Shown: piece after piece, positions 31,532 through 48,082 of the stretch
Numbering within the stretch: position 1 is the stretch's first letter
How the letters are laid out: the number at the start of each line of letters is the position of its first letter
NCBI GenBank assembly: GCA_964482725.1
Contig: CAYZYT010000008.1
Location: 3,255 to 67,254 of the forward strand
Length of the DNA stretch: 64,000 nucleotides
Direction: 5' to 3'
Source of the DNA: an uncultured bacterium
Lineage (GTDB): Bacteria > Omnitrophota > Omnitrophia > Omnitrophales > Aquincolibacteriaceae
Made by a program: the position numbers and the translations under genes
The notes under the pieces: generated by a model
The model's database searches: none
What the model saw: the letters and a program-made list of their open reading frames with translations, nothing else
Told to the model about the DNA's origin: nothing

Positions 31532-31612
31532 AGACAAAGATGCATAGACGCACAGAAGCAAAGAATTTTAGAGTTCTAAGGTTCTCTGTTTCTTGTTTCT
31601 TGGCTTCTGCAG
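31532..31612. repeat. AGAAGCAAAGA-rich imperfect palindrome upstream of lnt
   Basis: CAGAAGCAAAGAA ... TTCTTGGCTTCTG. Related words recur at 33170-33360. Confidence 0.45.
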
Positions 31613-31616
31613 TTTC

Positions 31617-33212
31617 ATGAAGCCTTCTGCCGAACGAAGTGTCCCGTATTCCTTTCTTCGCACGCCCTATCTCTATCAAATCGTTTCCGGTCTGCTCCTG
31701 GCGCTCTGCTATCCCTCCACGGGCTGGGGGTTCCTGGCCTGGTTTGCTCTCGTGCCGCTTCTTGCCTCCCTGCATCATGCTCAGAATCATTCTCAGGCCC
31801 TGGGTTTTGGGCTGATCACCGGGATCGTCTTCTTTGTTTTCTCTATTCATTGGCTGACTTATGTGTCGACCGTGGGCTGGCTCCTCGTGGTGCTGATGGA
31901 ATCGGTTTATCTCATGGCGTTCTCGTGGCTCGCGTATCTGGGGATCCGGTCCCCAAAATCCGTCCCCTTCAAGATCTTATGGATCGCGCTTGCGTGGACG
32001 GTGATGGAGATCCTTCGCTCCGAAATGCCGGTGTTCGGCTTCGGATGGAATCTGCTGGCCTATGCCCAGTCTCCTTATGTTTCTCTCATCCAGTTCGCCA
32101 ATGTTCTGGGTTCTTATGGCCTTGGTTTCTTGATCGTGTGTGTGAACGCATCCCTGATGTACGCCTGGTTCAGGCGCAAAGACTGGGGGGTGGCACTGAG
32201 TTTGGTCGCGGTCATTGTTTTGATTTTTGGCGGGCTTTGGAGCTACGGAACTACAGTTCTTGCAAAACCGGCGGCGCCTATGGAATATTTACGTGTCTCC
32301 GTGGTGCAGGGGAATATCCCGCAGTCCGTGAAATGGGAAATCATGGCCAAGGAGAAGATCCTTGAGATTTACGAGAAACTCACCCAGCTCGCGGCGCTTG
32401 AACAGCCGGACTTGATCCTTTGGCCGGAGGCTGCTTTCCCGGGTTATTTCAACCGGGACCTCCAGGCGGAACGGATCTCCCGGCTCGCGCAAGAGATCCA
32501 AACGCCGCTTTTGCTCGGCGGGCTTGAATGGGAAAGTGAAAGAGAATCCTATAACAGTGCTTATTTTCTAAAAAAAGATGGCGCCTCCGGACAGCGTTAC
32601 GACAAGCTTCGGCTGGTTCCCTTCGGAGAATACATTCCGCTCAAAGCTGTTTTTGGATGGCTGACACCGATTGCCGACGCGTTCGGGATCAGTGATTTTA
32701 ACGCCGGGAAAGATCCCGTGGTCTTCCGCTGGGCGCGCGAGGCCTGGCCCTTCGGGGTCCTGATCTGTTTCGAGGACGTCTTTCCGGATCTTGCGCGGGA
32801 GCTTGCGGATCGCGATGCGAAATTCCTTGTTGTGATCACGAATGATGCCTGGTTCGGGAAGACCGGCGCGCCTTTCCAGCATCTTCAGGCCTCGATCTTC
32901 CGTGCGGTGGAAAATGGCGTGGCGGTCATCCGGGCGGCCAATACCGGCGTTTCGGGGTTCATCTCTCATCAAGGGCGCGTCCTTGCAACTCTGAAAGATC
33001 CCAAAGGCGAAGCGACTTTTGTGATGGGGCAGAAGACGCTCGACTTGCCGCTGATCGCGGAGCGGACGCTTTTCCGGCAAGGCGGATTTTTATTTCCGTA
33101 TTTTGCGGTGGCTCTCTTTTTGATCATGGGGTTATTCTTATTCAGAAAAAGGCTCGCTAATGAGAAGCAGAGAATCAAAGAGACAGAGATGCCGAGAGAC
33201 AGAGACGCATAG
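31617..33212 (+). CDS. lnt: apolipoprotein N-acyltransferase
   Basis: N-terminal multi-TM region followed by a CN-hydrolase domain (EAAFPGY, ICFED, NDAWFG). Start could be 31593 or 31617. Confidence 0.85.
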   Translation: MKPSAERSVPYSFLRTPYLYQIVSGLLLALCYPSTGWGFLAWFALVPLLASLHHAQNHSQALGFGLITGIVFFVFSIHWLTYVSTVGWLLVVLMESVYLMAFSWLAYLGIRSPKSVPFKILWIALAWTVMEILRSEMPVFGFGWNLLAYAQSPYVSLIQFANVLGSYGLGFLIVCVNASLMYAWFRRKDWGVALSLVAVIVLIFGGLWSYGTTVLAKPAAPMEYLRVSVVQGNIPQSVKWEIMAKEKILEIYEKLTQLAALEQPDLILWPEAAFPGYFNRDLQAERISRLAQEIQTPLLLGGLEWESERESYNSAYFLKKDGASGQRYDKLRLVPFGEYIPLKAVFGWLTPIADAFGISDFNAGKDPVVFRWAREAWPFGVLICFEDVFPDLARELADRDAKFLVVITNDAWFGKTGAPFQHLQASIFRAVENGVAVIRAANTGVSGFISHQGRVLATLKDPKGEATFVMGQKTLDLPLIAERTLFRQGGFLFPYFAVALFLIMGLFLFRKRLANEKQRIKETEMPRDRDA

Positions 33213-33360
33213 AAACAAAGAAGCCAAGGGGCGTAGAGGTGAAGATGCATAGAAACAAAGAAGCAAAGAGGCATAGAAGCATAGAAAGGAGCAGGATTTT
33301 CTTCTGCTTTTTCTTGAGTCTCTGCTTCTCTGCGTCTTGTGTGTTTTCCGGTTGCGTCCG
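33170..33360. repeat. AGAAGCAAAGA / CATAGAAACAAAGAAGC low-complexity direct and inverted repeats downstream of lnt
   Basis: GCATAGAAACAAAGAAGC occurs three times, with complementary TTCTGCTTTTTCTTG and CTGCTTCTCTGCGTCT arms. Confidence 0.45.
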
Positions 33361-33486
33361 CGTCGGCGCAGGGGCCGGCTATTGGCATACCCACCCGGAC
33401 GGCGGTACGACCGTGAAACAGGCAGGCTTCGACACGGCCCATTTGATTCCCGGGGATTCGACGGCAGGAAAAATTACGGTTTAAAG

Positions 33487-34245
33487 CTAGATCAGGGAAA
33501 GGCCACCGTCGGCAATCACTGTTTGGCCGACGATCCATGAGGATTCGGGGGAGCAGAGGAATGCCACGACGCGCGCAAGGTCTTCGGGCTTTCCGATCCT
33601 GCCGCCCGGAGTTCTTTTTAGCACCTCCGCTTTGAAATCGTCAAAAAACGGGAACATTTTCAACGCGTCCGTATCCACCAACCCGCCTGAGACGCAATTC
33701 ACGCGGATCCCTTTAGGCATCAATTCTACGGCCAAGTAGCGCATCGTGGCTTCGATCGCGGCTTTGGAGATGCCGATGGCGCCGTAATTGGGAATAAAAT
33801 GGTGTGCGCCCAAACTTGAGAGGGCGATGATGATGCCTTCTTTTTTGGCCTCCATGATCGGAAGGGCCTTTTGCGCAAGGGCGAGGAACGCTTTGGCATT
33901 GATGTTCATCGAAAGGTCCCAGTGGTTCATCTTGAGCCGGTGGACGGCTTTGAATGCGCCCAGGGCGGCATTGTGGATCAGGATATCGAGGGTTCCAAAG
34001 GTTTTGAGGATGTCTTCAAAGAGAGCTTTGTGCGAATCGAGGTCTCCGACATTCGCCTGGAATGCGGCAGCTTTCACGCCTTTGGCGAGGAGTTCGTCGA
34101 CCGTTTTCCGGGCAGCGTCTTCATTTTGGAGATAATTGACCGCGATATGGACGCCATCGTCGGCTAAACGGAGGGCGATGGCCCGTCCGATCCCTCGGGA
34201 AGCTCCGGTGATGAGTGCAACTTTGCCTTTCATAGAATTTAGCAT
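33487..34245 (-). CDS. fabL: enoyl-ACP reductase, FabL (ENR III) type SDR
   Basis: Strong similarity to B. subtilis FabL: TGASRGIGRA, WDLSMNINAKAF, and SSLGAHHFIPNYGAIGISKAA (Tyr-x6-Lys) ... YLAVELMPKGIRVNCVSGGLVDTDALKMFP. Confidence 0.8.
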   Translation of the reverse strand: MLNSMKGKVALITGASRGIGRAIALRLADDGVHIAVNYLQNEDAARKTVDELLAKGVKAAAFQANVGDLDSHKALFEDILKTFGTLDILIHNAALGAFKAVHRLKMNHWDLSMNINAKAFLALAQKALPIMEAKKEGIIIALSSLGAHHFIPNYGAIGISKAAIEATMRYLAVELMPKGIRVNCVSGGLVDTDALKMFPFFDDFKAEVLKRTPGGRIGKPEDLARVVAFLCSPESSWIVGQTVIADGGLSLI

Positions 34246-34372
34246 AGTCCCAATACCTTTCAATTTTAACGAAGCGGTCCCAATACCAATCAATCACAGC
34301 TTTCTGTGATTGGCGCCGTCCAAGTCGCCGTCCCAAAAAATAAAGACTTGGACGGAAATTGGGGCAATCCCG
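34246..34372. repeat. intergenic repeat element copy R2 (GCGGTCCCAATACC core, CAATCACAGC/GCTGTGATTG hairpin, GTCCAAGTC/GACTTGGAC hairpin)
   Basis: Aligns with R1 (inverted), R3 and R4. Overlaps the first codons of fabL. Confidence 0.6.
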
Positions 34373-34517
34373 GCAGCCATTGATGATATGAAAATAAATA
34401 CAAGATGGGCGATAAGATAACAGATAATAGAGCAAATCCAAAAGAAAAAAAGATTCTTGGGGCTCCTCGAAGGGCTATGCTATAATTTCCCGCTCAAAAA
34501 CCACAACGAACGAGATC

Positions 34518-35138
34518 GTGAATTCTATCAAGAATTATCTGCAGGTCTTTCAGCGCCGGGTACTGGACGGGATCGTCAAACATTTCGCCCACGGCGCGCT
34601 TGAGGCTCGGGCGGAAAAGATCGTTCAGCTTTTTGAAAATCAGATCCCGAGGGGAAGCCGGATCCTGGATTTGGGAGGCGGGTGGGGTTTTTACGCAGAG
34701 CCTCTCAAAAAGAGAGGGCACGAGCATCTCGTTTTGGACGTCGTGAACCCGGGCTATCAGAAGGCCCCTGTGGTGCTGTATGACGGCCTGAAGATCCCGT
34801 TCCCGGATCAAAGTTTTGATGTCACGATCCTCATGACCATGTTGCACCACGTGCCGGACCCGCAGGCGCTTTTTAAAGAAGTGCTCAGGGTGACGCGCCA
34901 CAAGGTCGTAGTCGTCGAGGATCTCTATTGCCACGCAGCGGGGCGGTTCTGGACCATTTGTAGAGATCGTTTTTTAAATGTAGAGTTCACAACTCATCCG
35001 CACCAGTTCCGTTCGGATGGTGGCTGGCGGGATTTTTTTAAAGCTTCGGGTTTTGAGGTCAGCTCTTTTAAAAGTTTTTATACTTGGCTTTCAGGATTTC
35101 GCATCCTGAATGGTGTTTACGTTTTGGAGAAATCGTAA
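34518..35138 (+). CDS. class I SAM-dependent methyltransferase
   Basis: Motif I ILDLGGGWGFY and post-I acidic residue. GTG start. A TATAAT box lies at about 34477. Confidence 0.75.
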   Translation: MNSIKNYLQVFQRRVLDGIVKHFAHGALEARAEKIVQLFENQIPRGSRILDLGGGWGFYAEPLKKRGHEHLVLDVVNPGYQKAPVVLYDGLKIPFPDQSFDVTILMTMLHHVPDPQALFKEVLRVTRHKVVVVEDLYCHAAGRFWTICRDRFLNVEFTTHPHQFRSDGGWRDFFKASGFEVSSFKSFYTWLSGFRILNGVYVLEKS

Positions 35139-35170
35139 CCAAATGTCATCCCCGCTGGAAGCATTCAGGG

Positions 35171-35602
35171 ATGACAAAGGGAAGATATCGAACGATGACA
35201 CGGCTTGCGATCGAAAAGATACTCTGGATCAAAGAAGGTGAGGGCATTACGGCCTGTGGCCGTATCCCAGAGGATTCCGAATTTTTTAAGGACCATTTCC
35301 CGGGGTTCCCCGTGTTGCCGGGGGTGTTGGCGCTTGAGATGCTTAAGCAGACTGCGGAGCGGTATCTGGCGTCCCTTCCGAGCGGTGAAGGACAGCATTA
35401 TTTCTTGAAGCAGATCCGAGCGACCCGGTTTACGAAATATCTCAGGCCCGGCGATGAATGGGAAAGTCGTCTCATGCTCACGCAAAGCGAGGGAGAGGAA
35501 ACGACCTGGGACGCTAAATTGTTTTATCACGGCGATGTCGCCGTATCGGCCAAGTTGACGTTGGCCAAAGTTAAGAACCCGCAATCATCAGCAGTGTCAT
35601 AG
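35171..35602 (+). CDS. FabA/FabZ-like hotdog 3-hydroxyacyl-ACP dehydratase (DH1)
   Basis: FPGFPVLPGVLALEMLKQ active-site region. Confidence 0.75.
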   Translation: MTKGRYRTMTRLAIEKILWIKEGEGITACGRIPEDSEFFKDHFPGFPVLPGVLALEMLKQTAERYLASLPSGEGQHYFLKQIRATRFTKYLRPGDEWESRLMLTQSEGEETTWDAKLFYHGDVAVSAKLTLAKVKNPQSSAVS

Positions 35603-35624
35603 ACAACTTAGGAAGGACGATAGA

Positions 35625-36038
35625 ATGATCATGGAGAAAGAACTCTTTACGAAAGTTCAGCAAACACTTGCCGGCGCCCTCGGCGTCGATGAGGCGGATA
35701 TCGTGCCGGAAGCTTCCTTGAAGCGGGATCTTGGCGCAGAGTCCATCGATTTCATTGATATCGTTTTCCGTCTTGAGAAGGCGTTTGATCTCAAGATCCC
35801 GGCCGGAGATCTTTTTCCGAGCCATCTTCTGAACGATGAGCGCTTCGTGAAGGAAGGCATGGTCACGCCGGAGGGGCTCGCGGAGCTTCGTACAAAGCTG
35901 CCTTACCTCGAACTCGAAGAATTCACCAAAGATCCTCAGATCACAAAGCTGGCGGATTGTTTTACGGTGAAGATGCTGCTTCGTTATCTGAACGACCGCT
36001 TGGGCAAGAGTTCCTGCGACGATCAATGCTGCTCGTAA
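35625..36038 (+). CDS. acyl carrier protein with unusual C-terminal extension of about 50 aa (ends ...SSCDDQCCS)
   Basis: Phosphopantetheine-site context DLGAESIDFIDIVFRLEKAF. GGAAGGA RBS. 137 aa versus about 80 aa for a typical ACP. Confidence 0.75.
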   Translation: MIMEKELFTKVQQTLAGALGVDEADIVPEASLKRDLGAESIDFIDIVFRLEKAFDLKIPAGDLFPSHLLNDERFVKEGMVTPEGLAELRTKLPYLELEEFTKDPQITKLADCFTVKMLLRYLNDRLGKSSCDDQCCS

Positions 36039-36607
36039 AACAAAAAACCGCCAGCTCAAAACACAGAGCGAGGCTCGCCCCAGCTTCCAATTACAGTCGA
36101 GGGGCGGCCACGCTGTGCGGCGTGGGTGTGGATCTGGTGTCCTGCCACCGCGTGAGGCAATTTCTTTCGCGCCACCGGGATTATGTTCGCGAACGTTTCC
36201 TGAATCCCTCGGAGCGTCGGTCCTTCAAACGTCTTTCCCTCCAAGCCTTTGCGGAACTTTTTACGGCCAAGGAAGCCTTTTTCAAGGCGTGCGGCGAGTC
36301 GTGGATGGGGCTCGAAGGGTTCCAGGGCATGCGGATGAAACGATGCGAGGGTGATCATTTTGAGATGGAATGGCGGACCGGGCGCACCCAGAAGCTCTAT
36401 CGCGGGGAAGGGCATTTTTTCCGAAGCGGGGACCTGGTAGGCGCGCAGGCCATGATCTGGAGATGGAGCCCCACGGCTTTACGATCGCGGTCCCCACATG
36501 TTTTAGCGACATCCCGCCGCCGAAGTATCCACGCCAAAATGCGGCGGGATTATCCCGCGTCTTCATTGCCGGCTTTACAGCCGGTGCCTTCGGCGAAGGC
36601 GGGATAA
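36017..36607 (+). CDS. acpS: holo-ACP synthase (AcpS-type 4'-phosphopantetheinyl transferase); start uncertain (ATG 36017 overlapping the ACP stop, or GTG about 36122)
   Basis: GVGVDLV ... FLNPSERRSF ... FTAKEAFFKACG aligns with the AcpS motifs GIGxDI and FAAKEAxxKAxG. C-terminal extension of about 40 aa is non-conserved. Confidence 0.65.
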   Translation, partial: RRSMLLVKQKTASSKHRARLAPASNYSRGAATLCGVGVDLVSCHRVRQFLSRHRDYVRERFLNPSERRSFKRLSLQAFAELFTAKEAFFKACGESWMGLEGFQGMRMKRCEGDHFEMEWRTGRTQKLYRGEGHFFRSGDLVGAQAMIWRWSPTALRSRSPHVLATSRRRSIHAKMRRDYPASSLPALQPVPSAKAG

Positions 36608-36608
36608 C

Positions 36609-37076
36609 ATGCGCTGGCTTCTTCTTGAAAAAGTCCATTCGATCCACAAGGGAAAAAAGGCCGTTGCTTCTGCGAAGGTTCCCCAAGCTCCTTACAGTTC
36701 GGAAGTTCTTTTTATTGAAATGATGGCGCAGACCGGCGGTCTTTTGGTCGGTGCGGAAAGCGATTACCAAAAAGATCTCATCTTCGCGAAGATCGAATGC
36801 GCGACCATCTCAAAGGTTCCGAAGTCCGGCACCGCGATTCAAATCGAGGCTTGGTCCGAAAGTCTCGGGACCGAAGGAGGTTGGCTTGAGGCGACGATCA
36901 CTTGTGCCGAAGGATTGGTCGCGAGCGCGAAGCTCCTGCTGATGGCCGTGAGCGGACTTTCCGCGGAACAGACGAAGTCCATCACATTCCACGAGGCTTT
37001 CATGAATCATTTTAACGTCCGCGAGAAGATCCTTCCATCCCTGCCTGGCGGGGAGCCCGGCGCAACGCAGGGCTGA
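36609..37076 (+). CDS. second FabZ-like hotdog dehydratase (DH2); possible heterodimer partner of DH1 (ApeI/ApeP-like arrangement)
   Basis: EVLFIEMMAQTGGLL hotdog active-site-like region. 155 aa. Confidence 0.6.
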   Translation: MRWLLLEKVHSIHKGKKAVASAKVPQAPYSSEVLFIEMMAQTGGLLVGAESDYQKDLIFAKIECATISKVPKSGTAIQIEAWSESLGTEGGWLEATITCAEGLVASAKLLLMAVSGLSAEQTKSITFHEAFMNHFNVREKILPSLPGGEPGATQG

Positions 37077-37081
37077 TCTTC

Positions 37082-38368
37082 ATGACCGAAAAACGCCGTG
37101 TTGTGATCACAGGTTTTGGGGTTATCACGCCGTGCGGGAACGGCTGGGAACCTTATTGGGAGGCCGCTCTTCACGGGCGGTCCGCGATCCGAAGTGCCGA
37201 TCCCCTCAAGATGAATTGCCCCTCTTTTAAATATGCCGGGATGCTGTCCGGGTTCGAACCGAAAGAATTTATTGAGAACCGGAAATCCATCAAGTTGATG
37301 TCCCGCGAGATCCAGATGGCGGTTGCGGCAAGTCGTCTGGCGCTTCAGGACGCCAAACTTTCTCCGGAGCATTATGACCCCACGCGGGTTGGCGTCACGC
37401 TCGGCACCGGGATCATCAATAACGATCTCGATGAGATCGGCATGGGCTTTAGGAACGGGCTGGATGAGAACGGGCATTTTTCCATGACCAAGTTCGGGCA
37501 AGAGGGCGTTCGCTCGCTTTTTCCTCTTTGGTTCCTGAAGTATCTTCCGAACATGCCGGCCTGTCATGTCTCCGTTGCGAATCATCTTCGGGGCCCGAAC
37601 AATACCATCACGACGTCCTCCGCGGCGAGCACCCAGGCGATCGGGGAAGCCTACCGTGTGATCGAGCGTGGAGATGCGGATATTATGTTGGCGGGCGGCA
37701 CGGACTCGAAACTTAATGCGATGGGGATCTCACGTTTCCAGCTCCTCGGGCTTCTTTCAACAAGAGAAGCCTCTCCCGAGAAGGTTTACTGTCCTTTTGA
37801 CAAAAAACATGACGGAATAGTCCTGGGCGAAGGTTCGGGGATCCTGGTGCTGGAATCCCTCGCGAGTGCAAAAAAACGCGGGGCCTCGATCTACGCGGAG
37901 ATCGCCGGCTACGGATCTTCCTCTGATTTTAATTATGATCCGCGGGATCCGGATGATTTTACGGGCAAGCGCGTGGCGATTCGCCGGGCGCTTGAAGATG
38001 CCGCGATCGAGCCCGCGGATGTCGATGTTCTTGTGGCGAATGGCAGCGGTATTCCCCAAGAAGATGCTCAGGAGTCGCTCGCGGTCCATTCCTTTTATGC
38101 GTCGACTTTCAAAAAACTTCACGTCACTGCCGTGAAACCTGTGACGGGGAATCTGGTTTACGGGACCGGAAGTATCGAGGCGGTGGTTGCAGCCTTGACC
38201 ACGAAAAAAGGACAAGTGCCGCCGGTCACGAATCTTGAAAATCCGGATCCGGAGTGCTCGCTTCCGTTCGTCAAAGATAAAGCGAAATCTTGCCAAGTCA
38301 ACGTGGCCGTCCTGAACACCTTCGGGCTGGGCGGCCAAAACGCATCCCTGGTGTTTAAAAAATGCTAA
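37082..38368 (+). CDS. ketosynthase-like chain-length-factor (CLF) paralog lacking the catalytic triad
   Basis: KAS fold with TTSSAAS in place of TACxSG (Cys to Ser), ANGSG in place of AHGTS (His to Asn) and TGN in place of GH (His to Asn). Confidence 0.8.
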   Translation: MTEKRRVVITGFGVITPCGNGWEPYWEAALHGRSAIRSADPLKMNCPSFKYAGMLSGFEPKEFIENRKSIKLMSREIQMAVAASRLALQDAKLSPEHYDPTRVGVTLGTGIINNDLDEIGMGFRNGLDENGHFSMTKFGQEGVRSLFPLWFLKYLPNMPACHVSVANHLRGPNNTITTSSAASTQAIGEAYRVIERGDADIMLAGGTDSKLNAMGISRFQLLGLLSTREASPEKVYCPFDKKHDGIVLGEGSGILVLESLASAKKRGASIYAEIAGYGSSSDFNYDPRDPDDFTGKRVAIRRALEDAAIEPADVDVLVANGSGIPQEDAQESLAVHSFYASTFKKLHVTAVKPVTGNLVYGTGSIEAVVAALTTKKGQVPPVTNLENPDPECSLPFVKDKAKSCQVNVAVLNTFGLGGQNASLVFKKC

Positions 38369-39660
38369 AACGTAGAGTGGTCGTCACAGGGATGGGCGCC
38401 GTGACGCCTCTTGGAAATTCCGTGCGTGATACCTGGCTTCGTTTGACGCAGGGGAAGTCGGGGATCGGGCCCATCACGCTCTTTGATGCGAGCCGTTTTC
38501 CGACGCGCATTGCGGCTGAGGTGAAAGGGTTCCAATTCGAGAAATGGCTTGAGCGCAATCCACCGCTTAGTTGCGCGGGCCGGAGCACTTTTTTTGCGCT
38601 TCAGGCCGCAGCGGAAGCCTACAAGGGCGCGAGGCTCGAGCCTCTTGCCGTGAATCCGAATCGCTTTGGTATTTATTTTGGAGCGGGTGACAGCGGGATC
38701 GATTTTGCTCCCTTTATCAAGACCATGGTCGCGTCTTTTACGAAGGAAGGCACGGAGATTGTGGATAAAGGAAAATACCTCCAACATGCCGCCGAGAATA
38801 TGAGCGCTTTGCGAGAGCTTGAAAACCAGCCCTTCATGACCGTGACACATCTGACGCGTCTTTTTGATATACGCGGGCCGGTTTCGAATTGTTTGACGGC
38901 GTGCGCGGCGTCGTCCCAGGCGATCGGGGAGGCTTTTGAATGGATACGGCGCGGGGATGCCGATGTGATGATGGCCGGTGGTTCCCACTCCATGATCTAT
39001 CCGATGGGGGTCGCCGGGTTCAGCTTATTGACGGCTCTTTCCACTCGAAACGATGATCCTGAAAAAGCCTCGAGGCCGTTCGATAAAAAACGGGACGGAT
39101 TTGTGATCGGCGAAGGCGCCGGGGTGCTCATCCTTGAAGATCTGGAACACGCGAGGAAGCGCAAGGCGCCGATCCATGGCGAAGTCGTGGGATATGGCTC
39201 GACCGCGGACGCGTATCGCCTCACGGATATGGACCCGGAAGGCCGTGGCGCGGCGCGCGCTATGGAGATTGCGATGGAAAAAGCTTGCGTTGGGCCTCAA
39301 AATATTGATTATATCAATGCGCACGGCACTTCCACCGCAGTGAATGACTCGCTGGAAACCCTCGTCATCAAAAAAGTGATGGGCGATTGTGCTCCGAAGA
39401 TCCCGGTCAGCTCGACCAAATCCATGCTCGGGCATATGATCGCGGCGGCCGGCGGGGTTGAAGCAATTATTTGTTTGATGGCCATGCGCGATTCGATGAT
39501 CCCGCCGACGATCAATTATGAAGAACCGGATCCTGAGTGCGATCTGGATTATGTGCCGAACACGGCGCGGCGCTCGGGCGTGAATTTGGCGCTTTCGAAC
39601 TCGTTCGGGTTCGGGGGGCAGAACATTTGTTTAGCTTTAAGGAGATATGATGGCGCATAA
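38362..39660 (+). CDS. beta-ketoacyl-ACP synthase (FabF-like KS) with intact Cys-His-His triad
   Basis: CLTACAASSQAIGEA, YINAHGTSTAVND and SSTKSMLGHMIAAAG. Overlaps the CLF gene by 7 nt. Confidence 0.85.
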   Translation: MLKRRVVVTGMGAVTPLGNSVRDTWLRLTQGKSGIGPITLFDASRFPTRIAAEVKGFQFEKWLERNPPLSCAGRSTFFALQAAAEAYKGARLEPLAVNPNRFGIYFGAGDSGIDFAPFIKTMVASFTKEGTEIVDKGKYLQHAAENMSALRELENQPFMTVTHLTRLFDIRGPVSNCLTACAASSQAIGEAFEWIRRGDADVMMAGGSHSMIYPMGVAGFSLLTALSTRNDDPEKASRPFDKKRDGFVIGEGAGVLILEDLEHARKRKAPIHGEVVGYGSTADAYRLTDMDPEGRGAARAMEIAMEKACVGPQNIDYINAHGTSTAVNDSLETLVIKKVMGDCAPKIPVSSTKSMLGHMIAAAGGVEAIICLMAMRDSMIPPTINYEEPDPECDLDYVPNTARRSGVNLALSNSFGFGGQNICLALRRYDGA

Positions 39661-40744
39661 CTTGATTTTTATGACCGGTGCGACCGGTGTGTTGGGGCAG
39701 GACCTTGTGAAGGAATTGCTCCGGACCACGAACGCAGAAATTGCGCTCCTGGCCCGTGCGAAAAACCGCGCCACCCATTCGGACCGGGTCAAAAAGATCC
39801 TTACTTCGATTGGTATCGATTCTCATCTGGGTTCCCGCGTCCATGTGATCGAAGGGGATGTGACGCATCATAAATTCGGCATCAAAAAAGCCGACCTCGA
39901 AACTCTGGAGCGTGAGTGCAAGGTGTTCTATCACATCGCAGCGCTTACGGCTTTGAACGGGACGGAGAAGGAATGCCAGCAGATCAATGTGGGAGGCACC
40001 GAGCACGCTTTGGAGCTGGCCTGGGACCTTCGTAAAAAAGGAAAACTCGAGCGGTTCATCTATTTCAGCACGGCGTTCGTCGCCGGAAGCGTGTGGGACC
40101 ATTGTTCTAAGGAAGATGAGCTTCCGGCCAAGCCTGTGTTTGCGAACTATTACGAGTCGAGCAAATACAAGGCCGAGACCAAAGTTCGCGAGGCGATGGC
40201 CAAGGGACTTCCGGTCACGATCATTCGTCCGAGCATCGTGGTGGGGCATTCGGAGACCGGCGTGGTCTCGGATTTCAATGTGATCTACCCTTTCATCAAG
40301 CTCTTCGCTCACGGAGTGCTTTCCAAGATCCCCACGCATCGTGAGAACACGTTCAATATTGTGCCCATTGATTTTGTGATCCAGGCGACCTGCGCGATCG
40401 TCAAGGACCCGCGGAGCATCAATAAGGCTTTTCATGTGGTAGCGCCCAAACCGCCTTCGATCGGCATGCTCCTTAGGGTGGGGGAAGAGGAATATTCGGC
40501 CATCCCTCCGATCGAGGTGATCGATCCCCTGCACTTCAAAAAAAACAAGATGGGCGCGCAGGAGCAAATGGTCTTCGCGATGCTGGAGCCTTATCTGGGA
40601 TATTTGAACGGGCGCCTCACCTTCGATACTTCCAATACGCGTGAGATCCTACGCGGCACCGGGATCCCGATGCCAAAAACCGATCATGCTTTTCTCAAGA
40701 CCCTGATCCGTTATGCCGTTAAGGTCGGGTACCTAGCCATTTAA
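39647..40744 (+). CDS. stand-alone thioester reductase / fatty-acyl reductase (NAD_binding_4, 'male sterility' family)
   Basis: FMTGATGVLGQDL Rossmann motif and YYESSKYKAE (YxxxK). 365 aa. Overlaps the KS gene stop. Confidence 0.75.
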   Translation: MMAHNLIFMTGATGVLGQDLVKELLRTTNAEIALLARAKNRATHSDRVKKILTSIGIDSHLGSRVHVIEGDVTHHKFGIKKADLETLERECKVFYHIAALTALNGTEKECQQINVGGTEHALELAWDLRKKGKLERFIYFSTAFVAGSVWDHCSKEDELPAKPVFANYYESSKYKAETKVREAMAKGLPVTIIRPSIVVGHSETGVVSDFNVIYPFIKLFAHGVLSKIPTHRENTFNIVPIDFVIQATCAIVKDPRSINKAFHVVAPKPPSIGMLLRVGEEEYSAIPPIEVIDPLHFKKNKMGAQEQMVFAMLEPYLGYLNGRLTFDTSNTREILRGTGIPMPKTDHAFLKTLIRYAVKVGYLAI

Positions 40745-40785
40745 AATTGTTGTTATCGTCATTCAACTATCCAAGGGGTCCCACA

Positions 40786-41115
40786 ATGAAAAGAGCTATA
40801 GCTTCGATCTTGATTTTGGCAGTGCTGAGTTTCTGGATCCCTTGCGCGTGCGCGGAGATCTCTCAGGATCTGGATCCGATGGTGCCTGTGGATGCGCAAG
40901 CGACTGTGGTGGAAGAAGCCTCGATGAATGGTGCCTCGACCGGCCAGGTCAGTAACGTGGTGAGCACCGCGGATGCAACGGTTGGCGAGAAGAAAAAAGT
41001 AGAAGAGACGAAGCATGCGAAGTCGAAAAAGTCCTCAAAAAAGAAATCTTCCGAAAAGAAAAACAAGAAGTCTGGTCCCCAGAAGTCCAAGGCGAGCAAG
41101 AAAAGCTCTAGTTAA
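40786..41115 (+). CDS. small secreted Lys/Ser-rich protein, hypothetical
   Basis: Signal peptide MKRAIASILILAVLSFWIPCACA, then a KKSSKKKSSEKKNKK low-complexity tail. AAGGGG RBS. Confidence 0.5.
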   Translation: MKRAIASILILAVLSFWIPCACAEISQDLDPMVPVDAQATVVEEASMNGASTGQVSNVVSTADATVGEKKKVEETKHAKSKKSSKKKSSEKKNKKSGPQKSKASKKSSS

Positions 41116-41179
41116 AGATCTCTGACAGAATGAAGCTTACCCTCCCCACAAAAGCAGGGATCCGGGGAGTGGATTCCCG

Positions 41180-41235
41180 ACCGGTCCGAAGCGCGGTATT
41201 GGGAATGGCGTTTTGTTGGAAATTCTAGGAACCGT
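41180..41235. repeat. degenerate copy R4 of the GCGGTCCCAATACC repeat family (inverted)
   Basis: GGTCCGAAGCGCGGTATTGGGAATGGCG. Its reverse complement matches the CGAAGCGGTCCCAATACC core region. Confidence 0.4.
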
Positions 41236-41319
41236 TTGCTTTCATAAAGCGTTGCTTTGGGTTCGTCCCCGGGGTAACGCTTTATTTATTAAAACGATCG
41301 GTGACTGTCTCTATTGCTT

Positions 41320-42486
41320 TTATCGCCAGTGGGTCTGGCGCCTGAAGCAGGCCATTTGAAAGGCGTCGAAAAGAATGGCTGTGAAGATGAGCGCCGCGAG
41401 CGGGTGCAGGAGCGCGTAACGTTTCCTGGATTTGACGATCCCATAGGCCGTGAACGCAGTAGCGAAAATGATCCCAAGGATCAAGAAACAAAGAAACAGC
41501 GAAAGATTTGATTGGCCCGGGAGCATGATCAAGACCGCGAACGGGAAGACGGAAAAGAAGAAAACGCTCAGAGCGCATTTCAGGATCGGCGCCGGTCTTT
41601 GATCGAAAGCGTGAAGGTAGATCCGACGCCAACCCCGCCAAAGGGCGTCAAAAGAATCGTACATCCGCGTGCCGTAGACGTCCATGCCAAATGCGGACAT
41701 GCTTCGCGCGCCGATTTCCTTCGTTTTTTTCATCAACGCAAAGTCCTCGAGGAATGCTTCCTTTACGGCATCGTGCCCGCCGATCTTCCGGTAATGGTCC
41801 GCGCGCAGCAACAGGTATTGTCCGTTCCCGAAATAGACCTTCGACTTTGGATCATTGATCTTTCGGATGGGGAACCACAGCCCCATATAGCTCATGGCGC
41901 AGGGCTGAATAAGAAGTTCCCAAAAACCGTGGGCGAGACAGCGGGGCAGGAGCGTTAAAAGATCAAGTTTGTTCGCCTCCGCGAAGGTCAAGGAGGCATC
42001 CACGCTGCCGGGTTCGTGGCGAGTATCCGCATCCGTGAAGAGAAGCCAGTCGCCCGAGGCGTGCTCGATCCCGAGATGGAGCGCGAAATTCTTACCGGTC
42101 CATCCTTTCGGGGTAGGGGGTGTGTTGAGGTATCCGAAAAAAGGAGTAGGCAGGTTTTCCCTCAAAGCCAACCTTTCCTCTTTAATTTCCATGGCGCCTA
42201 GTTCCTTTAAAATCGCCTCAGTGCGGTCCGTGGAACAATTATTGATGACGATGATCTCGTCACCGTTTCGGAGCTGGGTGAGGAACGGCCTGACGCAATC
42301 CGCGATGTTTTTCTCTTCATTCTTGGCGGGAATGAGGATCGAGACTTTGCCTTGGCGGGAGACAGGTGCTGTGAGCTTCAACGTGGGGGCTTGTTTGATT
42401 TCGGATAACGAACGCCAACTGCGATAAATCCAGCCGGCCAGCAGAAATACGAGAATTAAGAAAACAATAGGGGCAGGGATCTCCAT
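41320..42486 (-). CDS. membrane-embedded family-2 glycosyltransferase (N-terminal TM, GT-A domain, C-terminal TM bundle)
   Basis: ILIPAKNEE, LFTDADT (DxD) and a C-terminal hydrophobic region. Architecture resembles lipid-directed GT2/GT21 enzymes. Confidence 0.75.
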   Translation of the reverse strand: MEIPAPIVFLILVFLLAGWIYRSWRSLSEIKQAPTLKLTAPVSRQGKVSILIPAKNEEKNIADCVRPFLTQLRNGDEIIVINNCSTDRTEAILKELGAMEIKEERLALRENLPTPFFGYLNTPPTPKGWTGKNFALHLGIEHASGDWLLFTDADTRHEPGSVDASLTFAEANKLDLLTLLPRCLAHGFWELLIQPCAMSYMGLWFPIRKINDPKSKVYFGNGQYLLLRADHYRKIGGHDAVKEAFLEDFALMKKTKEIGARSMSAFGMDVYGTRMYDSFDALWRGWRRIYLHAFDQRPAPILKCALSVFFFSVFPFAVLIMLPGQSNLSLFLCFLILGIIFATAFTAYGIVKSRKRYALLHPLAALIFTAILFDAFQMACFRRQTHWR

Positions 42487-42630
42487 AGGCGTGGAATCAT
42501 AACAAATGCCCCGTCCCAGTCAACTTTTAAAAGGGGAGCGTGACGGCGCCGGGGAGGTGGAGACTCTGCTTGTCTGTAGCCTTGAGAGGAGTAGACTATA
42601 GACGAGAAGCGTGACGAAAGGGGGTGTCCC

Positions 42631-43008
42631 TTGCAAGAAGAAACGCAGCTAGTATCCCAGGTAAGAATGCTCCTGGTGGATGATGACCCCGACTTCGCGA
42701 GGATCTTCCAGACCTCCTTACGGGCCGATAAGAGGGTTTCATCTGAGGGCGAAAACGCCAGCACGCTTGAGTCCGCTTTAAAGATTCTCCAAGAAAAAAC
42801 CTTCCAGTTGATCCTTAAGCTGTCATTTTTAGATCCCCTGTCCCAGCTGCTTAATCGCCGCAGACTCCAGCGCATGGTCTCCCGGGAGCTTGAGATCTCC
42901 GGCCGCGGGGGTGCGAATCTTTCCGTGATCCTTCTGGACCTGGATAATTTCAAACCGATCAATGATACCTTCGGCCACGCGGTCGGGGATCCATGGATTC
43001 CCGCTTGA
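42631..43008 (+). pseudogene. truncated response-regulator/GGDEF (diguanylate cyclase) remnant
   Basis: Degenerate receiver-like N-terminus, then the GGDEF domain start DPLSQLLNRRRLQ...LSVILLDLDNFKPINDTFGHAVGD. It terminates before the GGDEF active site and abuts the HK gene. Confidence 0.6.
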
Positions 43009-43048
43009 AGCACGCGGGAATGACATGGGGGAGTTAAGAGGAGCAGTC

Positions 43049-46000
43049 ATGAGTTCCATTAAGCCAGAAAAGACGAACCCCGGAAATGGTGTCTCGTTCG
43101 TTTGGGGTTCGAAACCCAGAGGGATATTGTCGTTCTTCCTGATCGCTCTCGTGCTGATCTTTGCGGGGTTTTATTTCTACATGACCGAAGCGGAGCAAGT
43201 TTTGCGCGTAAAGGCCTCCGAGTTGAGTTCTATCGGAAAAATGAAGGTGGATCAGATCCTCCGATGGCACAAGGAACGGAGCGATGATGCGGTGAGACTG
43301 GCGGATTCTGTGATGATTGAAAAGTCCGTAGGAGAGTGGCTTCGTGATCCGGACCGGCTCCTCCATAAAGAAGACTTGATCGAGCGCTTGAGGCTTGAAC
43401 AGGATCTCGGAGTTTATTTTCAAGCGCTTTTGGTGAGCCCGGATCAAAAGATCCTTCTCTCGGCGACTTCCTCGCCCGCTGAGATGGAGACCGACAGCTG
43501 GGCGGCGGTGAAGAAGGCTTTGACGGAGCCTGAGCCTGTCTTTAGCCAATTGCATTACACGCCCTCCGGGAAGGTCCATGTCGATATCGCGAAGGCCATT
43601 CGGGATGACGCAGGTCAAGTGATGGCCGTTCTTGTGCTGACCACGAATGCGAACGAATTTCTTTTTCCCATGATCCGTGTTTGGCCGACGTCCAGCCCGA
43701 GCGGGGAGTCCATTCTGGTACGCCGTCAGGGCGACGAAGTTCTTTTTATGAACATGCTCCGGCACCGGGAAGACACGGCCCTTAGGATGCATCTTCCTAT
43801 CTCAAGGCCTCTATTCCCGGCCGCTCAGGCGGTGCAGGGGAGGACCGGGATCGTCTTTGGCGTGGATTATTCCGGGACAAAGGTTGTCGCCGATTTGCGG
43901 CCCATTCCAGACACAGACTGGTTCCTGGAGACCAAGCAAAATGAATCGGAGGTCGAAGGAGAAGTGCGTCTTCGTGCCCTCGTGGCTTTCGTCGTGGTAT
44001 TGCTGTTAGTGCTAGGCATCGCGGGCGGGATGGCCATCCGTTACCAGTCTTGGCAGATTAAGGAAAGTAAGAAAATGGAGGCGGCAACCGCTTTGAGCGC
44101 CCATCGCACGCAAGCGCTGCTTAAGCTGAACCAGATGACCGAGGCCTCACTGAAGGAAATTACAGATTTTGCCCTGGAGGAGGCCGTACGGTTGACCCAA
44201 AGTAAGATCGGCTATCTGGCGTTCCTCAACGAAGATGAAAGCGTGCTCACCATGCACTCGTGGTCGAAAAGTGCCATGGCGGAGTGCGCCATTAGCCAGA
44301 AACCGATCGTGTATCCAGTCGAGACTACCGGACTTTGGGGCGAGGCGGTTCGGCAGCGCCGAGCCGTTATTACTAACAATTATGCTGCTGCCAACCCGCT
44401 CAAAAAAGGCTGCCCCAAGGGGCATGTGGCTGTGAAACGTCACATGAATACTCCCGTGTTCGATGGCTCCAGAATCGTTATCGTTGCGGGCGTAGGCAAT
44501 AAAGAAGAAGAGTACAATCAAAGTGATGTTGAGCAGTTAACGCTGCTTATGGAAGGTATGTGGAGGCTGCTCGAACGTAAGCGCTTGGAAGAGGAATTAG
44601 TGAAGTCGAAGGAGATGCAGTTCAAAACGCTTATCGAGACACTGCCTTCTAAGGTGTTTCTCAAGGATAAGAACTCTGTCTATATTTCCTGTAATGAGAG
44701 TTTTGCCAGCGACTTGGGGATCAAGGTAAAGGAGATCATCGGGAAAACGGACTATGATCTTTTCCCCACGCCTTTAGCTGAAAAGAGGAGGGAAGAAGAT
44801 AAGCGGATCATGGAATCAGGGAAAGCCGAAAGCCGGGAAGAAGAATACCATCTGATTAATGATTATCTCAAGGGTTCTCAGACGTCTTATGTCGATATCG
44901 TCAAAGCTCCTGTTCGGGACAACGAGGGCAACGTAACGGGAATCCTCGGTATTTTTTGGGACATTACCGAACGCAAGGAAGCAGAGAATGCGCTGCGAAG
45001 AAATCGAGAGCTGCTCTTTGAAATGACATCGCAGGTTCCGGGTGTTGTCTATCAGTTCTATGCCAGGCCGAACGGGGAAAGAGGTCTTTATTTTGTGAGT
45101 CCAAAGGCGGAACAGATCTTCGGCCTAAAATCGGATCAGGAGGATTTTTTCGAAAAGTTTACCGCCTTGGTGGCCCCCGAGAACAGGGAAGACTTTTTGA
45201 ATTCCATAGAGAAATCTGTGCGGGAGGTGAGCGAATGGAAATTTGAGGGAATGATCGAGAAGCCTTCGGGAGAAAAAATCTGGTTTTCCGGAAACTCGAT
45301 TCCGTTTTTAGGTAAAAATGAAATTATTTTTAATGGAATATTGTTAGACATCACCGAGTGGAAAAAAGCGGAAGTGGAAAAAAAGCGCGTGGAGGTTCTG
45401 GCGTCTACCGCGGAGACAAAATCCAGGTTTGCTTCGATGGTCTCCCACGAGCTCCGTAGCCCGATGGCGGTGATCAAGGAAGCACTGGATATTGTTTTGG
45501 AGGGGATGGTCGGAAGTATCAATGACGAGCAAAAGAATGTTCTGGATATGGCCAAAACCAATATCACCCGGTTGGGGCGTTTGATTAATAATGTGCTGGA
45601 TTTTCAGAAAGTCGAATCGGGAAAAATGGAGTTCGATATCCAGGAAAACGACCTCAAGGAAGTGATGAGGGAAGTCCATGAGAGCATGAGCGTCCTGGCG
45701 AAAAGGGCGGGTTTGAACCTAGCGATGGAGTTGGACGAGGGGCTGCCGATCCTAAAGTTCGATAGGGACAGGATCATCCAGGTTCTTACGAATCTGGTAA
45801 GTAATGCCGTTAAAAATACCGAAAAAGGGGGCGTTACGATCGCCGCAAAAAAGGAAGCGGATGTCGTGCATTTGAGTGTGCAGGATGCGGGCAGAGGCAT
45901 TCCGGCTCAGGATATTGGAAAGCTCTTTCATGCGTTTGAGCAGGTGGACAGCCTTCGGAGCAAACCCAAAGGCGGCACGGGTTTGGGCCTGGCGATCTCC

Positions 46001-46090
46001 AAGGAGATCGTTCTCGCGCATCACGGAAAGATCTGGGCCGAGTCCGAAGTGGGCAAGGGCAGTACCTTTCATGTCACATTACCTCTATAA
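43049..46090 (+). CDS. large sensor histidine kinase (periplasmic sensor, GAF, PAS x2, HisKA, HATPase)
   Basis: TTAAGAGGAG RBS. H-box SHELRSPM and [22 protein letters not shown]. Paralog of the HK at 22746-24221. Confidence 0.85.
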   Translation: MSSIKPEKTNPGNGVSFVWGSKPRGILSFFLIALVLIFAGFYFYMTEAEQVLRVKASELSSIGKMKVDQILRWHKERSDDAVRLADSVMIEKSVGEWLRDPDRLLHKEDLIERLRLEQDLGVYFQALLVSPDQKILLSATSSPAEMETDSWAAVKKALTEPEPVFSQLHYTPSGKVHVDIAKAIRDDAGQVMAVLVLTTNANEFLFPMIRVWPTSSPSGESILVRRQGDEVLFMNMLRHREDTALRMHLPISRPLFPAAQAVQGRTGIVFGVDYSGTKVVADLRPIPDTDWFLETKQNESEVEGEVRLRALVAFVVVLLLVLGIAGGMAIRYQSWQIKESKKMEAATALSAHRTQALLKLNQMTEASLKEITDFALEEAVRLTQSKIGYLAFLNEDESVLTMHSWSKSAMAECAISQKPIVYPVETTGLWGEAVRQRRAVITNNYAAANPLKKGCPKGHVAVKRHMNTPVFDGSRIVIVAGVGNKEEEYNQSDVEQLTLLMEGMWRLLERKRLEEELVKSKEMQFKTLIETLPSKVFLKDKNSVYISCNESFASDLGIKVKEIIGKTDYDLFPTPLAEKRREEDKRIMESGKAESREEEYHLINDYLKGSQTSYVDIVKAPVRDNEGNVTGILGIFWDITERKEAENALRRNRELLFEMTSQVPGVVYQFYARPNGERGLYFVSPKAEQIFGLKSDQEDFFEKFTALVAPENREDFLNSIEKSVREVSEWKFEGMIEKPSGEKIWFSGNSIPFLGKNEIIFNGILLDITEWKKAEVEKKRVEVLASTAETKSRFASMVSHELRSPMAVIKEALDIVLEGMVGSINDEQKNVLDMAKTNITRLGRLINNVLDFQKVESGKMEFDIQENDLKEVMREVHESMSVLAKRAGLNLAMELDEGLPILKFDRDRIIQVLTNLVSNAVKNTEKGGVTIAAKKEADVVHLSVQDAGRGIPAQDIGKLFHAFEQVDSLRSKPKGGTGLGLAISKEIVLAHHGKIWAESEVGKGSTFHVTLPL

Positions 46091-46102
46091 GGCGGGTGAA
46101 CG

Positions 46103-46468
46103 ATGACAAAGAAGATCTTGTTTGTGGATGATGAGCCGGACCTTCTAAGGGTTTCGTCGATCCGGCTCAAGAAAACAGGCTATGAGGTTTTTGAGGCGAT
46201 CGACGGTCAAACGGCCCTGGAACAGGCGCGCTCAAAAATGCCCGATCTGATCGTGCTCGATGTCTTTCTTCCGGTGATGAATGGCGATGAGGTTGCCAAG
46301 ATATTGAAAAGGGATGAGAAGCTGAAAAGCATTCCTATCATTCTGATCTCGGCCGATGCCAAGACTCTTGAGGAAAGAGCCAAGACGAGTGGTGCTGACG
46401 ACTATCTTGCCAAGGTATTTGATTCAGGAGCCTTGGTTTCCATGGTGAAAAAGTACGCCCCCCTTTGA
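46103..46468 (+). CDS. single-domain response regulator (receiver only)
   Basis: MTKKILFVDDEPDLL...DLIVLDVFLP. Paralog of the RR at 24218-24580. Confidence 0.85.
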   Translation: MTKKILFVDDEPDLLRVSSIRLKKTGYEVFEAIDGQTALEQARSKMPDLIVLDVFLPVMNGDEVAKILKRDEKLKSIPIILISADAKTLEERAKTSGADDYLAKVFDSGALVSMVKKYAPL

Positions 46469-47973: not shown

Positions 47974-48063
47974 GGCAACGGTCACGAAGCCCGTATCGGT
48001 TAGGGCGACGGTGACGTGGCCGAATGACGAAACGGGCATCGTAACCGTGACCGAAAACGGTGG
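47974..48063 (+). ncRNA. candidate structured cis-regulatory RNA motif, copy A (5' leader of lolE)
   Basis: About 90 nt sharing GGCAACGGTNNCGAANNCCGTATCG...ACGRRACGGGCATCGTWACCG...CCGAA with 51087-51195. Helix CGGTCACG/CGTGACCG here versus CGGTTGCG/CGCAGCCG in copy B (compensatory changes). Second helix GCCCGT/ACGGGC. Confidence 0.45.
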
Positions 48064-48082
48064 TACAAAGGGAGCATCTCTC

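Follow-up and report, generated by a model that had tools for sequence, protein, structure and literature searches.

The stretch of DNA analyzed here (the window: 64,000 nucleotides of contig CAYZYT010000008.1, assembly GCA_964482725.1) derives from an uncultured bacterium of the Omnitrophota and harbors on its plus strand two overlapping genes for proteins of the FabF type. The downstream gene (38362..39660) encodes KS, a β-ketoacyl-acyl carrier protein (ACP) synthase of 432 aa that is predicted to be active. The upstream gene (37082..38368) encodes KSx, a full-length paralog with FabF fold (428 aa) that lacks the catalytic triad and resembles a chain-length factor (CLF). Both proteins have complete ketoacyl-synt N and C domains and are 35% identical. 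KSx is by prediction a catalytically dead yet strongly conserved paralog of FabF.

Residues were assigned from gap-free phmmer alignments to FabF of Thermus thermophilus and Escherichia coli and from a MAFFT alignment. Ser180 of KSx (codon 37619-37621, ITTSSAAS) is found at the position of Cys163 of E. coli FabF, Asn320 (38039-38041, VANGSG) at that of His303 and Asn357 (38150-38152, TGN) at that of His340. An earlier note on this DNA had claimed just this exchange of Cys by Ser and of both His by Asn in the upstream paralog. Both kinds of alignment confirm it, and a Cys at the nucleophile position, which would speak against the claim, is not seen in any of them; the nearest Cys of KSx, Cys161, is opposite Gly144 of FabF. 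The gatekeeper Phe400 is replaced by Leu416. Lys335 (Lys352 in KSx), Asp311 and Glu314 are retained. The downstream KS was said to keep the motifs CLTACAAS, NAHGTS and LGH, and indeed its Cys181, His321, His358, Lys353 and gatekeeper Phe417 align with Cys163, His303, His340, Lys335 and Phe400 of FabF. The same Cys-His-His-Lys-Phe set is present in 42 of 42 partner KS proteins examined. KS is the same as canonical FabF in every catalytic and gating residue except for the back gate (PMC9006962), where Ile108 of FabF is replaced by Asp110 (38689-38691). This position is Asp in 27 of 28 partner KS proteins from Omnitrophota and Glu in 13 of 14 from Planctomycetota. Asp110 recalls Asp113 of Iga11, an acidic residue in the acyl pocket that expels the β-ketoacyl product; that the two match in position is possible. 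The N-terminus of KS, MLKRRVVVTGMG, agrees with that of FabF and, therefore, the start of the gene is well placed.

Despite the missing triad, the predicted fold of KSx is that of FabF. An AlphaFold2 model based on an alignment of 64 orthologs had a predicted local distance difference test score (pLDDT) of 87.6 and a predicted template modeling score of 0.87; confidence was low only in segments 112-118 and 152-156, within the region that aligns to the helix-loop-helix of FabF (~105-145). Its top structural matches are homodimeric FabFs, with FabF from Bacillus subtilis first, and the top sequence match of KSx is FabF from T. thermophilus (279 bits). With the FabF models of NCBIfam, KSx stays below the cutoffs (TIGR03150, 355.9 vs 493.75; NF005589, 353.6 vs 387). 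KS, with a score of 493.4, is just below the cutoff of TIGR03150 and passes NF005589 with 484.6; its best match in the PDB is FabF from B. subtilis (391 bits). Neither protein belongs to an aryl polyene (APE), polyunsaturated fatty acid, cispentacin or other specialized KS family of NCBIfam, the scores of which were far below the cutoffs. The canonical homodimeric FabF (KAS II) is the best match to KSx in sequence and structure and the best PDB sequence match to KS, but it differs in that KSx has no triad, that KSx and KS are inherited together and that both have an insertion of 14-16 aa.

The two genes overlap by 7 nt (38362..38368, plus strand), as had been noted before. The overlap reads ATGCTAA, with the ATG of KS at 38362 and the TAA of KSx at 38366-38368 (...AAA AAA TGC TAA), a geometry suited to translational coupling. 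After the KS starts had been re-anchored on the conserved N-terminus, 28 of 30 related loci showed an overlap of KSx stop and KS start or direct abutment (−14 to +1 nt). The two genes are strictly adjacent in about 30 species of Omnitrophota and in several Planctomycetota. The whole gene order is conserved in 33 loci of the Omnitrophota type: methyltransferase, dehydratase (DH1), ACP, 4′-phosphopantetheinyl transferase, a second dehydratase-like protein (DH2), KSx, KS and thioester reductase, with a short-chain dehydrogenase/reductase (SDR) upstream and a family 2 glycosyltransferase (GT2) after the reductase, both on the minus strand. In a neighbor-joining tree with 100 bootstraps, KSx proteins form one clade (100%) and partner KS proteins another (98%). 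The branching in both clades is mirrored: each has an Omnitrophota group with L034 at its base and a Planctomycetota group, and L035 and L038 are paired in both. Therefore, the tree points to an old duplication from which KSx and KS would have been inherited as a pair. The insertion of 14-16 aa relative to FabF is common to KSx and KS and lies in the helix-loop-helix, a motif of the dimer interface. Glu151 and Glu153 of KS are conserved in 28 of 28 Omnitrophota and 13 of 14 Planctomycetota; KSx has the opposite charges, a conserved Lys153 and Arg218 (37733-37735), the latter being specific to KSx and replaced by Gly in KS and FabF. Position by position, although not in net charge, the two proteins are asymmetric in a way that is suggestive of pairing.

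The loss of the triad is neither chance nor a sequencing error. As orthologs of KSx we took the best 120 database relatives (56-95% identity), which come from metagenome-assembled genomes (MAGs) of Candidatus Omnitrophota wherever the source is named; a scan of species-representative genomes likewise gave an ortholog with 95% identity in an Omnitrophota MAG. The position of Cys163 is Ser in 103, Ala in 15, Thr in one and Cys in one of them. The position of His303 is Asn in 117 and Tyr in three, that of His340 is His in 89, Asn in 30 and Asp in one. KSx of the window belongs to the subgroup with Ser-Asn-Asn (29/120); the combination Ser-Asn-His is found in 71/120. Since 15 of the 120 orthologs have Ala in place of Ser, a role of Ser as nucleophile is disfavored. 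Lys335, Asp311 and Glu314, on the other hand, are invariant throughout, and 84 columns are invariant among 64 orthologs. The ratio dN/dS against six orthologs was 0.04-0.07 for KSx, 0.03-0.08 for KS and 0.03-0.05 for the reductase. Apparently, purifying selection on KSx is as strong as on KS.

On sequence grounds, the mark that unites the KSx family is not the dead triad but the signature P-L-W150-x-L-K153-x-L-P-N-M-P-A-C161-H162 (residues 148-162, 37523-37567), which is found in two phyla: in 31 of 31 Omnitrophota and 47-48 of 48 Planctomycetota, with Cys161-His162 in 79 of 79 KSx proteins. The residue at the nucleophile position drifts while the signature and Arg218 hold. Sister lineages have Val, Asp or Glu there, and the homologs from Planctomycetota (Kolteria novifilia, Gemmataceae, Sedimentisphaerales and others) have Asp or Glu. 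In Planctomycetota, the order of the core genes is DH1, FabG, ACP, DH2, KSx and KS, with FabG in line. In some Planctomycetota (L037:7395-15495, L039, L050, L079) the core is directly followed by genes for an α/β-hydrolase and a GH3 amido synthetase, the latter a weak match to OlsH (130 bits, cutoff 620). OlsI and OlsH belong to the ornithine-lipid pathway of planctomycetes (PMC12493201). The hydrolase and GH3 genes resemble this pair, which suggests that the core may be devoted to providing acyl chains for an amino lipid. In addition, there are about 33 lone genes of the KSx family in Planctomycetaceae, Pirellulaceae and relatives (L042-L082, with the match at ~10001-11300 in each). These have D/E-H-N/H/Q at the triad positions and unrelated neighbors; PLWxLKxLPNMPACH is kept.

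The genes upstream of KSx on the plus strand start with that of a class I S-adenosylmethionine (SAM) methyltransferase (34518..35138; Methyltransf_11/23/25), for which neither an NCBIfam equivalog nor an informative relative in the PDB was found and which is conserved in all Omnitrophota loci. It is followed by DH1 (35171..35602), a 3-hydroxyacyl-ACP dehydratase of the FabZ/FabA type with a FabA domain; the start is approximate, the longest open reading frame (ORF) beginning at 35084. The alignment to FabZ (HFPG...LEMLKQ) shows both His54 and Glu68, and this His and Glu are kept in 31 of 31 orthologs from Omnitrophota. Orthologs also match the ApeI-like family PF22818. The ACP (35625..36038) has 137 aa, with PP-binding at residues 10-64; its canonical core is extended at the C-terminus by ~70 aa. 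ACPs in the PDB align to residues 3-65 only, and orthologs have 128-142 aa in both phyla. The conserved extension ends in a Cys-rich tail, SSCDDQCCS. A 4′-phosphopantetheinyl transferase of the AcpS type (36026..36607; PF01648, 5.2e-14; TIGR00556/acpS models) comes next, with an uncertain start; its gene was found in most Omnitrophota loci. DH2 (36609..37076) is a hot-dog protein similar to FabZ, with a weak FabZ match and no match in Pfam. Its catalytic His is replaced by Lys, and the Glu is present in IEMMAQ; in 32 of 32 orthologs from Omnitrophota the His segment is gone and the Glu kept. Its AlphaFold2 model (pLDDT 83.6) has a hot-dog fold, and the best Foldseek matches are FabZs, with amxFabZ from Kuenenia (8ayd, E 1.9e-06) first by a small margin. 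DH2 is a candidate for a non-catalytic partner of DH1. With KSx/KS and DH1/DH2, therefore, the condensing enzyme and the dehydratase of the operon each occur as a live copy paired with a degenerate one.

KS is followed by a stand-alone thioester reductase of the "male sterility" type (39647..40744, plus strand; NAD_binding_4, PF07993, 2.5e-56; TIGR01746, 173 bits), the gene of which overlaps the stop of KS by 14 nt and has AGGAG ahead of its start. Its best relative in the PDB is the MxaA reductase (4u7w, 108.9 bits), an enzyme that reduces a thioester to the alcohol. The convergent neighbor is the GT2 (41320..42486, minus strand; Glycos_transf_2), with HpnB (137 bits) and CruG (119 bits) as best NCBIfam matches, both below cutoff. 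It is kept beside the reductase in the Omnitrophota loci. The SDR (33487..34293, minus strand; adh_short_C2, 4.9e-69) is divergent to the operon and a candidate for a FabL-like enoyl-ACP reductase: the best NCBIfam match is FabL (NF005975, 315.5 bits, cutoff 328), whereas FabG gave 176.8 bits. Position and strand of the SDR are also kept in Omnitrophota loci.

Type II polyketide synthases set the length of their products by pairing a KS with a dead paralog. The CLF of the actinorhodin (act) system has Gln at the Cys position. Bulky residues of the CLF close off the tunnel in this known system (PMC9006962). Like KSx/KS, the actinorhodin KSα/CLF (1TQY) is a KS with an adjacent Cys-less paralog of KS fold, encoded by translationally coupled genes, and a heterodimer of KSx and KS would be analogous to it. 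There are, however, clear differences. KSx has Ser instead of Gln, and there is no Gln among 120 + 79 sequences of the KSx family, which have S, A, T, V, D or E at this position; the classical order, KS then CLF, is reversed; and cyclases and aromatases are absent, the neighbors here being dehydratases, ACP, phosphopantetheinyl transferase, thioester reductase, methyltransferase and GT2. KSx gave 166 bits with 1tqy_B, as compared to 279 with FabF from T. thermophilus. No Gln, the reversed order, the lack of cyclases and FabF as nearest relative rule out a CLF of the actinorhodin type. The earlier reading of the genes as a KS/CLF pair has to be split accordingly. An inactive, coupled partner is supported by the conserved loss, selection, overlap, adjacency and congruent trees, and the label CLF may be used in the functional sense only, not in that of an aromatic polyketide synthase.

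ApeC is a CLF of half size with one thiolase half (PMC8358021). KSx, with its 428 aa and both ketoacyl-synt domains, is not a CLF of this type. Iga11/Iga12 of ishigamide and ApeO/ApeC of aryl polyene biosynthesis, which belong to highly reducing type II polyketide synthases, also consist of an active KS and an inactive partner and work with a stand-alone ACP and hot-dog dehydratases; for APE biosynthesis, two dehydratases that form a heteromer have been described. Such systems have a stand-alone ketoreductase (KR) and no enoyl reductase. In the locus analyzed here an ACP and two hot-dog proteins are encoded, a KR is missing from the Omnitrophota operon, the SDR beside it is FabL-like, and genes for an adenylating enzyme, a thioesterase or a LolA-like protein are absent. 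Scores of KSx and KS to 6smo_B ("PKS_KS domain-containing protein") and 6kxd_A ("Ketosynthase") were well below those to FabF; we take 6kxd_A to belong to the Iga11-Iga12 series of entries. 6SMP has been cited as AntD-AntE. Among the nearest representatives (50% clustering) many proteins of KS fold are Cys-less, and there are natural fusions of ~800 aa that join an intact KS (CHHKF) to a degenerate half (P0125, P0127, P0134, P0138, P0184 and others), in two of which the degenerate half comes first. The fusions are hints of the Rosetta-stone type that KS and pseudo-KS halves may cooperate. Since such relatives and fusions exist, the KS/pseudo-KS principle is widespread.

The closest precedent comes from anammox bacteria. 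In their Cluster I, a putative ladderane cluster, amxFabFmut, encoded upstream and devoid of the triad, and the active amxFabF2 co-purify, are active only together and were crystallized as a KS/CLF-like heterodimer (Granatino et al., bioRxiv 10.64898/2026.05.19.726425). A helix-loop-helix that is disordered in the homodimer of amxFabFmut is ordered in the heterodimer, and Phe135 and Val139 of amxFabFmut line the tunnel of the active subunit; their mutation shifts the preference for substrate length (bioRxiv 10.64898/2026.05.19.726425). By alignment, Trp150 and Tyr154 of KSx are at Phe133 and Thr137 of FabF. They are presumed to be the counterparts of Phe135 and Val139, which is based on a numbering offset of +2 and not on alignment. 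As in the window, the anammox genes are adjacent and encode full-length homologs of FabF, the upstream copy is without Cys-His-His, an ACP of their own and a dehydratase of the FabZ type are encoded with them, the dead subunit is structurally closest to FabF from B. subtilis, and the organisms belong to the Planctomycetes-Verrucomicrobia-Chlamydiae (PVC) superphylum. On the other hand, the anammox triad is replaced by Val or Thr with Asn, Glu or Cys, as opposed to Ser/Asn/Asn in KSx, and the window has, in addition, an enzyme for reductive release, a glycosyltransferase and a methyltransferase. PDB entries 9s5h and 9s5i presumably are the anammox pair, as judged from date and chain composition, since the entry names no organism. 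KSx gave 219 and 175 bits with 9s5h_B and 9s5h_C (279 with FabF from T. thermophilus) and KS 307 bits with 9s5h_B (391 with FabF from B. subtilis). With either protein, canonical FabFs thus outscore the chains of this entry, and orthology to the anammox pair is not supported.

These findings are best described by a FabF-derived KS/pseudo-KS heterodimer in which KSx would be the dead but obligate partner in the role of a CLF and from which the acyl product would be released reductively. We give this model a probability of about 70%. Coupled translation would deliver KSx and KS in similar amounts, and the two would assemble to a pseudo-symmetric heterodimer with one working site (Cys181-His321-His358 of KS). 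There, an acyl chain would be loaded from ACP and extended with malonyl-ACP; decarboxylation of malonyl-ACP may also provide the primer. KSx would contribute the second half of the dimer interface, and its invariant residues Ile111/Ile112, Trp150, Tyr154 and Arg218 (next to the back-gate Phe) are candidates to line and limit the acyl tunnel and to aid docking of ACP. In this way KSx would act as chain-length factor. The finished acyl-ACP is most likely released by the MxaA-like thioester reductase as aldehyde or alcohol, and the HpnB/CruG-like GT2 probably glycosylates the released product, which in sister genomes is probably exported by an HAE3/MMPL transporter. The product is likely an acyl chain destined for an envelope lipid.

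Several points weigh against this model. The closest relatives of KSx in sequence and structure are FabFs that are homodimeric. In KSx as well as KS the helix-loop-helix carries a negative mean net charge (−1.7 and −3.2, respectively) and, therefore, the split into a positive and a negative motif reported for the anammox pair, with its net electrostatic asymmetry, is not reproduced. The invariant Cys161-His162 of KSx is not accounted for by a dead partner. No KS gene lies within 10 kb of the ~33 lone Planctomycetota genes of the Asp/Glu type, so members of the KSx family can occur without an adjacent partner. The amxFabFmut of S. brodae can be crystallized as a homodimer (bioRxiv 10.64898/2026.05.19.726425). 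Finally, neither KR nor FabD nor FabH is encoded in the operon and there is no FabG in the locus; because the operon lacks KR, FabD and FabH, the chemistry of the product is uncertain.

What else could KSx be? That it is a decaying duplicate without function would be in line with the loss of all three catalytic residues, but the ORF of 428 codons is intact, dN/dS is only 0.04-0.07, 84 columns are invariant in 64 orthologs and KSx is conserved across two phyla; we consider a pseudogene practically excluded and have rejected it on dN/dS and conservation. KSx could also be an enzyme in its own right. Acyltransferases of thiolase fold with a Ser nucleophile exist (Ser-His-Asp, as in DpsC), and most orthologs of KSx have the Ser and the second His (Ser-Asn-His, 71/120), so that Ser180, or else Cys161-His162, which is present in 79/79 KSx of two phyla, might act as nucleophile; Lys335, Asp311 and Glu314 are invariant as well. 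Alternatively, KSx might prime the chain as a KSQ-like malonyl-ACP decarboxylase. Decarboxylation by KS enzymes, however, requires two His, and the His303 position is Asn or Tyr in 120/120. In the lineage of the window a general base is missing, with Asn in place of both His, and the gatekeeper Phe is Leu. Moreover, Ala replaces the Ser in 15 orthologs, and sister lineages have Val, Asp or Glu instead. The Ala variants and the lack of His in the window lineage led us to reject a Ser nucleophile, and catalysis by KSx of whatever kind is quite improbable. An assembly of KSx with itself, apart from KS, would make it a binder or sequesterer of acyl-ACP or a scaffold for reductase or dehydratase, the adjacency to KS reflecting a shared pathway only. 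The homodimer crystal of S. brodae amxFabFmut, the lone genes of Planctomycetota and the missing complementarity in net charge would fit. Against this stand the conserved overlap of stop and start, the co-diversification of the paralogs and the conserved charge differences at dimer-contact segments, as well as the finding that neither anammox protein is active alone, and we regard a separate homodimer as unlikely.

The remaining alternatives concern the operon as a whole. It could be the housekeeping type II fatty acid synthase (FAS) of Omnitrophota, with KS as the FabF of the cell and KSx as a lineage-specific accessory; this would be compatible with a heterodimer. KS indeed misses the FabF cutoff only narrowly (493.4 vs 493.75) and passes the FabF subfamily model, ACP, AcpS and a FabZ-like protein are encoded in the operon with a FabL-like reductase nearby, and the locus is fixed (prfB-secA-lnt ... 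lysS-lolCD) in every Omnitrophota locus examined. Against this, the operon ends in a thioester reductase, its ACP is atypical with 137 aa, FabD, FabH and FabG are not encoded in the locus, and the occurrence of the core beside lipid-tailoring genes in Kolteria (7.6 Mb, L035) and other planctomycetes suggests a second system. Altogether, this role is rather doubtful. Clusters of the "ladderane" type have been called in Omnitrophota MAGs in antiSMASH-based surveys (PMC9902471), and one could assume that KSx/KS is the ortholog of the anammox Cluster I pair, with ladderane-like lipids as products of the operon. In both cases the gene of the mutated copy precedes that of the active one, Omnitrophota and anammox bacteria are members of the PVC superphylum, and the best structural match of DH2 is amxFabZ, by its small margin. 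However, FabFs outscore the chains of 9s5h, the presumed anammox pair, for KSx as well as KS, the ACP has no special similarity to any solved ACP, and domain scans of the window and related loci revealed neither a B12-radical SAM gene nor a phytoene-desaturase-like gene in or near the operon, whereas both are part of the anammox cluster. Orthology to the anammox pair, with ladderane-like lipids as product, is very unlikely.

KSx/KS is a new, uncharacterized case of the already known principle of a KS with a dead partner. The design extends beyond secondary metabolism and anammox bacteria. All related loci retrieved from Omnitrophota (~30) have it, conserved under strong selection and in a housekeeping position, and Planctomycetota possess a related module. 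To our knowledge, there is no cultured representative of the Omnitrophota and no described lipid chemistry. Literature searches for Omnitrophota lipids or the KSx/KS operon gave nothing except the "ladderane" calls (PMC9902471). The compact operon of ~6 kb is a testable handle on the envelope lipids of this phylum, and the series of dead sites with Ser, Ala, Val, Asp and Glu is a natural test of what a chain-length factor needs. It is tempting to speculate, although with little confidence, that KSx, KS, the long ACP, DH1 and DH2 are an ancient, vertically inherited "half-dead" FAS module of the PVC superphylum for lineage-defining envelope lipids, of which the anammox pair might be a fast-evolving offshoot. 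If so, the release chemistry would differ by lineage, with reductase, glycosyltransferase and MMPL exporter in Omnitrophota and an OlsI/OlsH-like hydrolase and GH3 amido synthetase in Planctomycetota, and PLWxLKxLPNMPACH together with Arg218 would be the functional core of a device for chain-length control or partner recognition.

The surroundings of the operon deserve a few remarks. A scan for promoters and terminators from 33200 to 42600 gave nothing above shuffled expectation. Directly after the reductase, an ORF of 122 aa (40747-41115) codes for a protein with a Lys/Ser-rich tail and a signal peptide or possible lipobox; no family match was obtained, and L001 and L002 lack it at this position. 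In these sister Omnitrophota the GT2 is followed by an HAE3/MMPL exporter (L001:18279-20615, L002:14894-17185), and an aldo-keto reductase is encoded upstream. The window has no aldo-keto reductase, and in place of the exporter there are a Cache/GAF/PAS histidine kinase and a response regulator (42962-46468). The whole set lies between lnt (31593-33212), coding for apolipoprotein N-acyltransferase, and lysS-lolC-lolD (48011-50117), a synteny that is kept across Omnitrophota; the flanks are, hence, genes of envelope lipids and lipoprotein trafficking. At the beginning of the window, an ORF of 1933 aa (53-5854) has a weak match to a metallo-β-lactamase domain only. Further upstream of lnt, prfB (26765-27875), coding for release factor 2, contains a classical site for programmed +1 frameshifting, AGGGGGTATCTTTGAC, at ~26831-26846; the main PCRF/RF-1 ORF (26889-27875) is without the N-terminal codons in frame.

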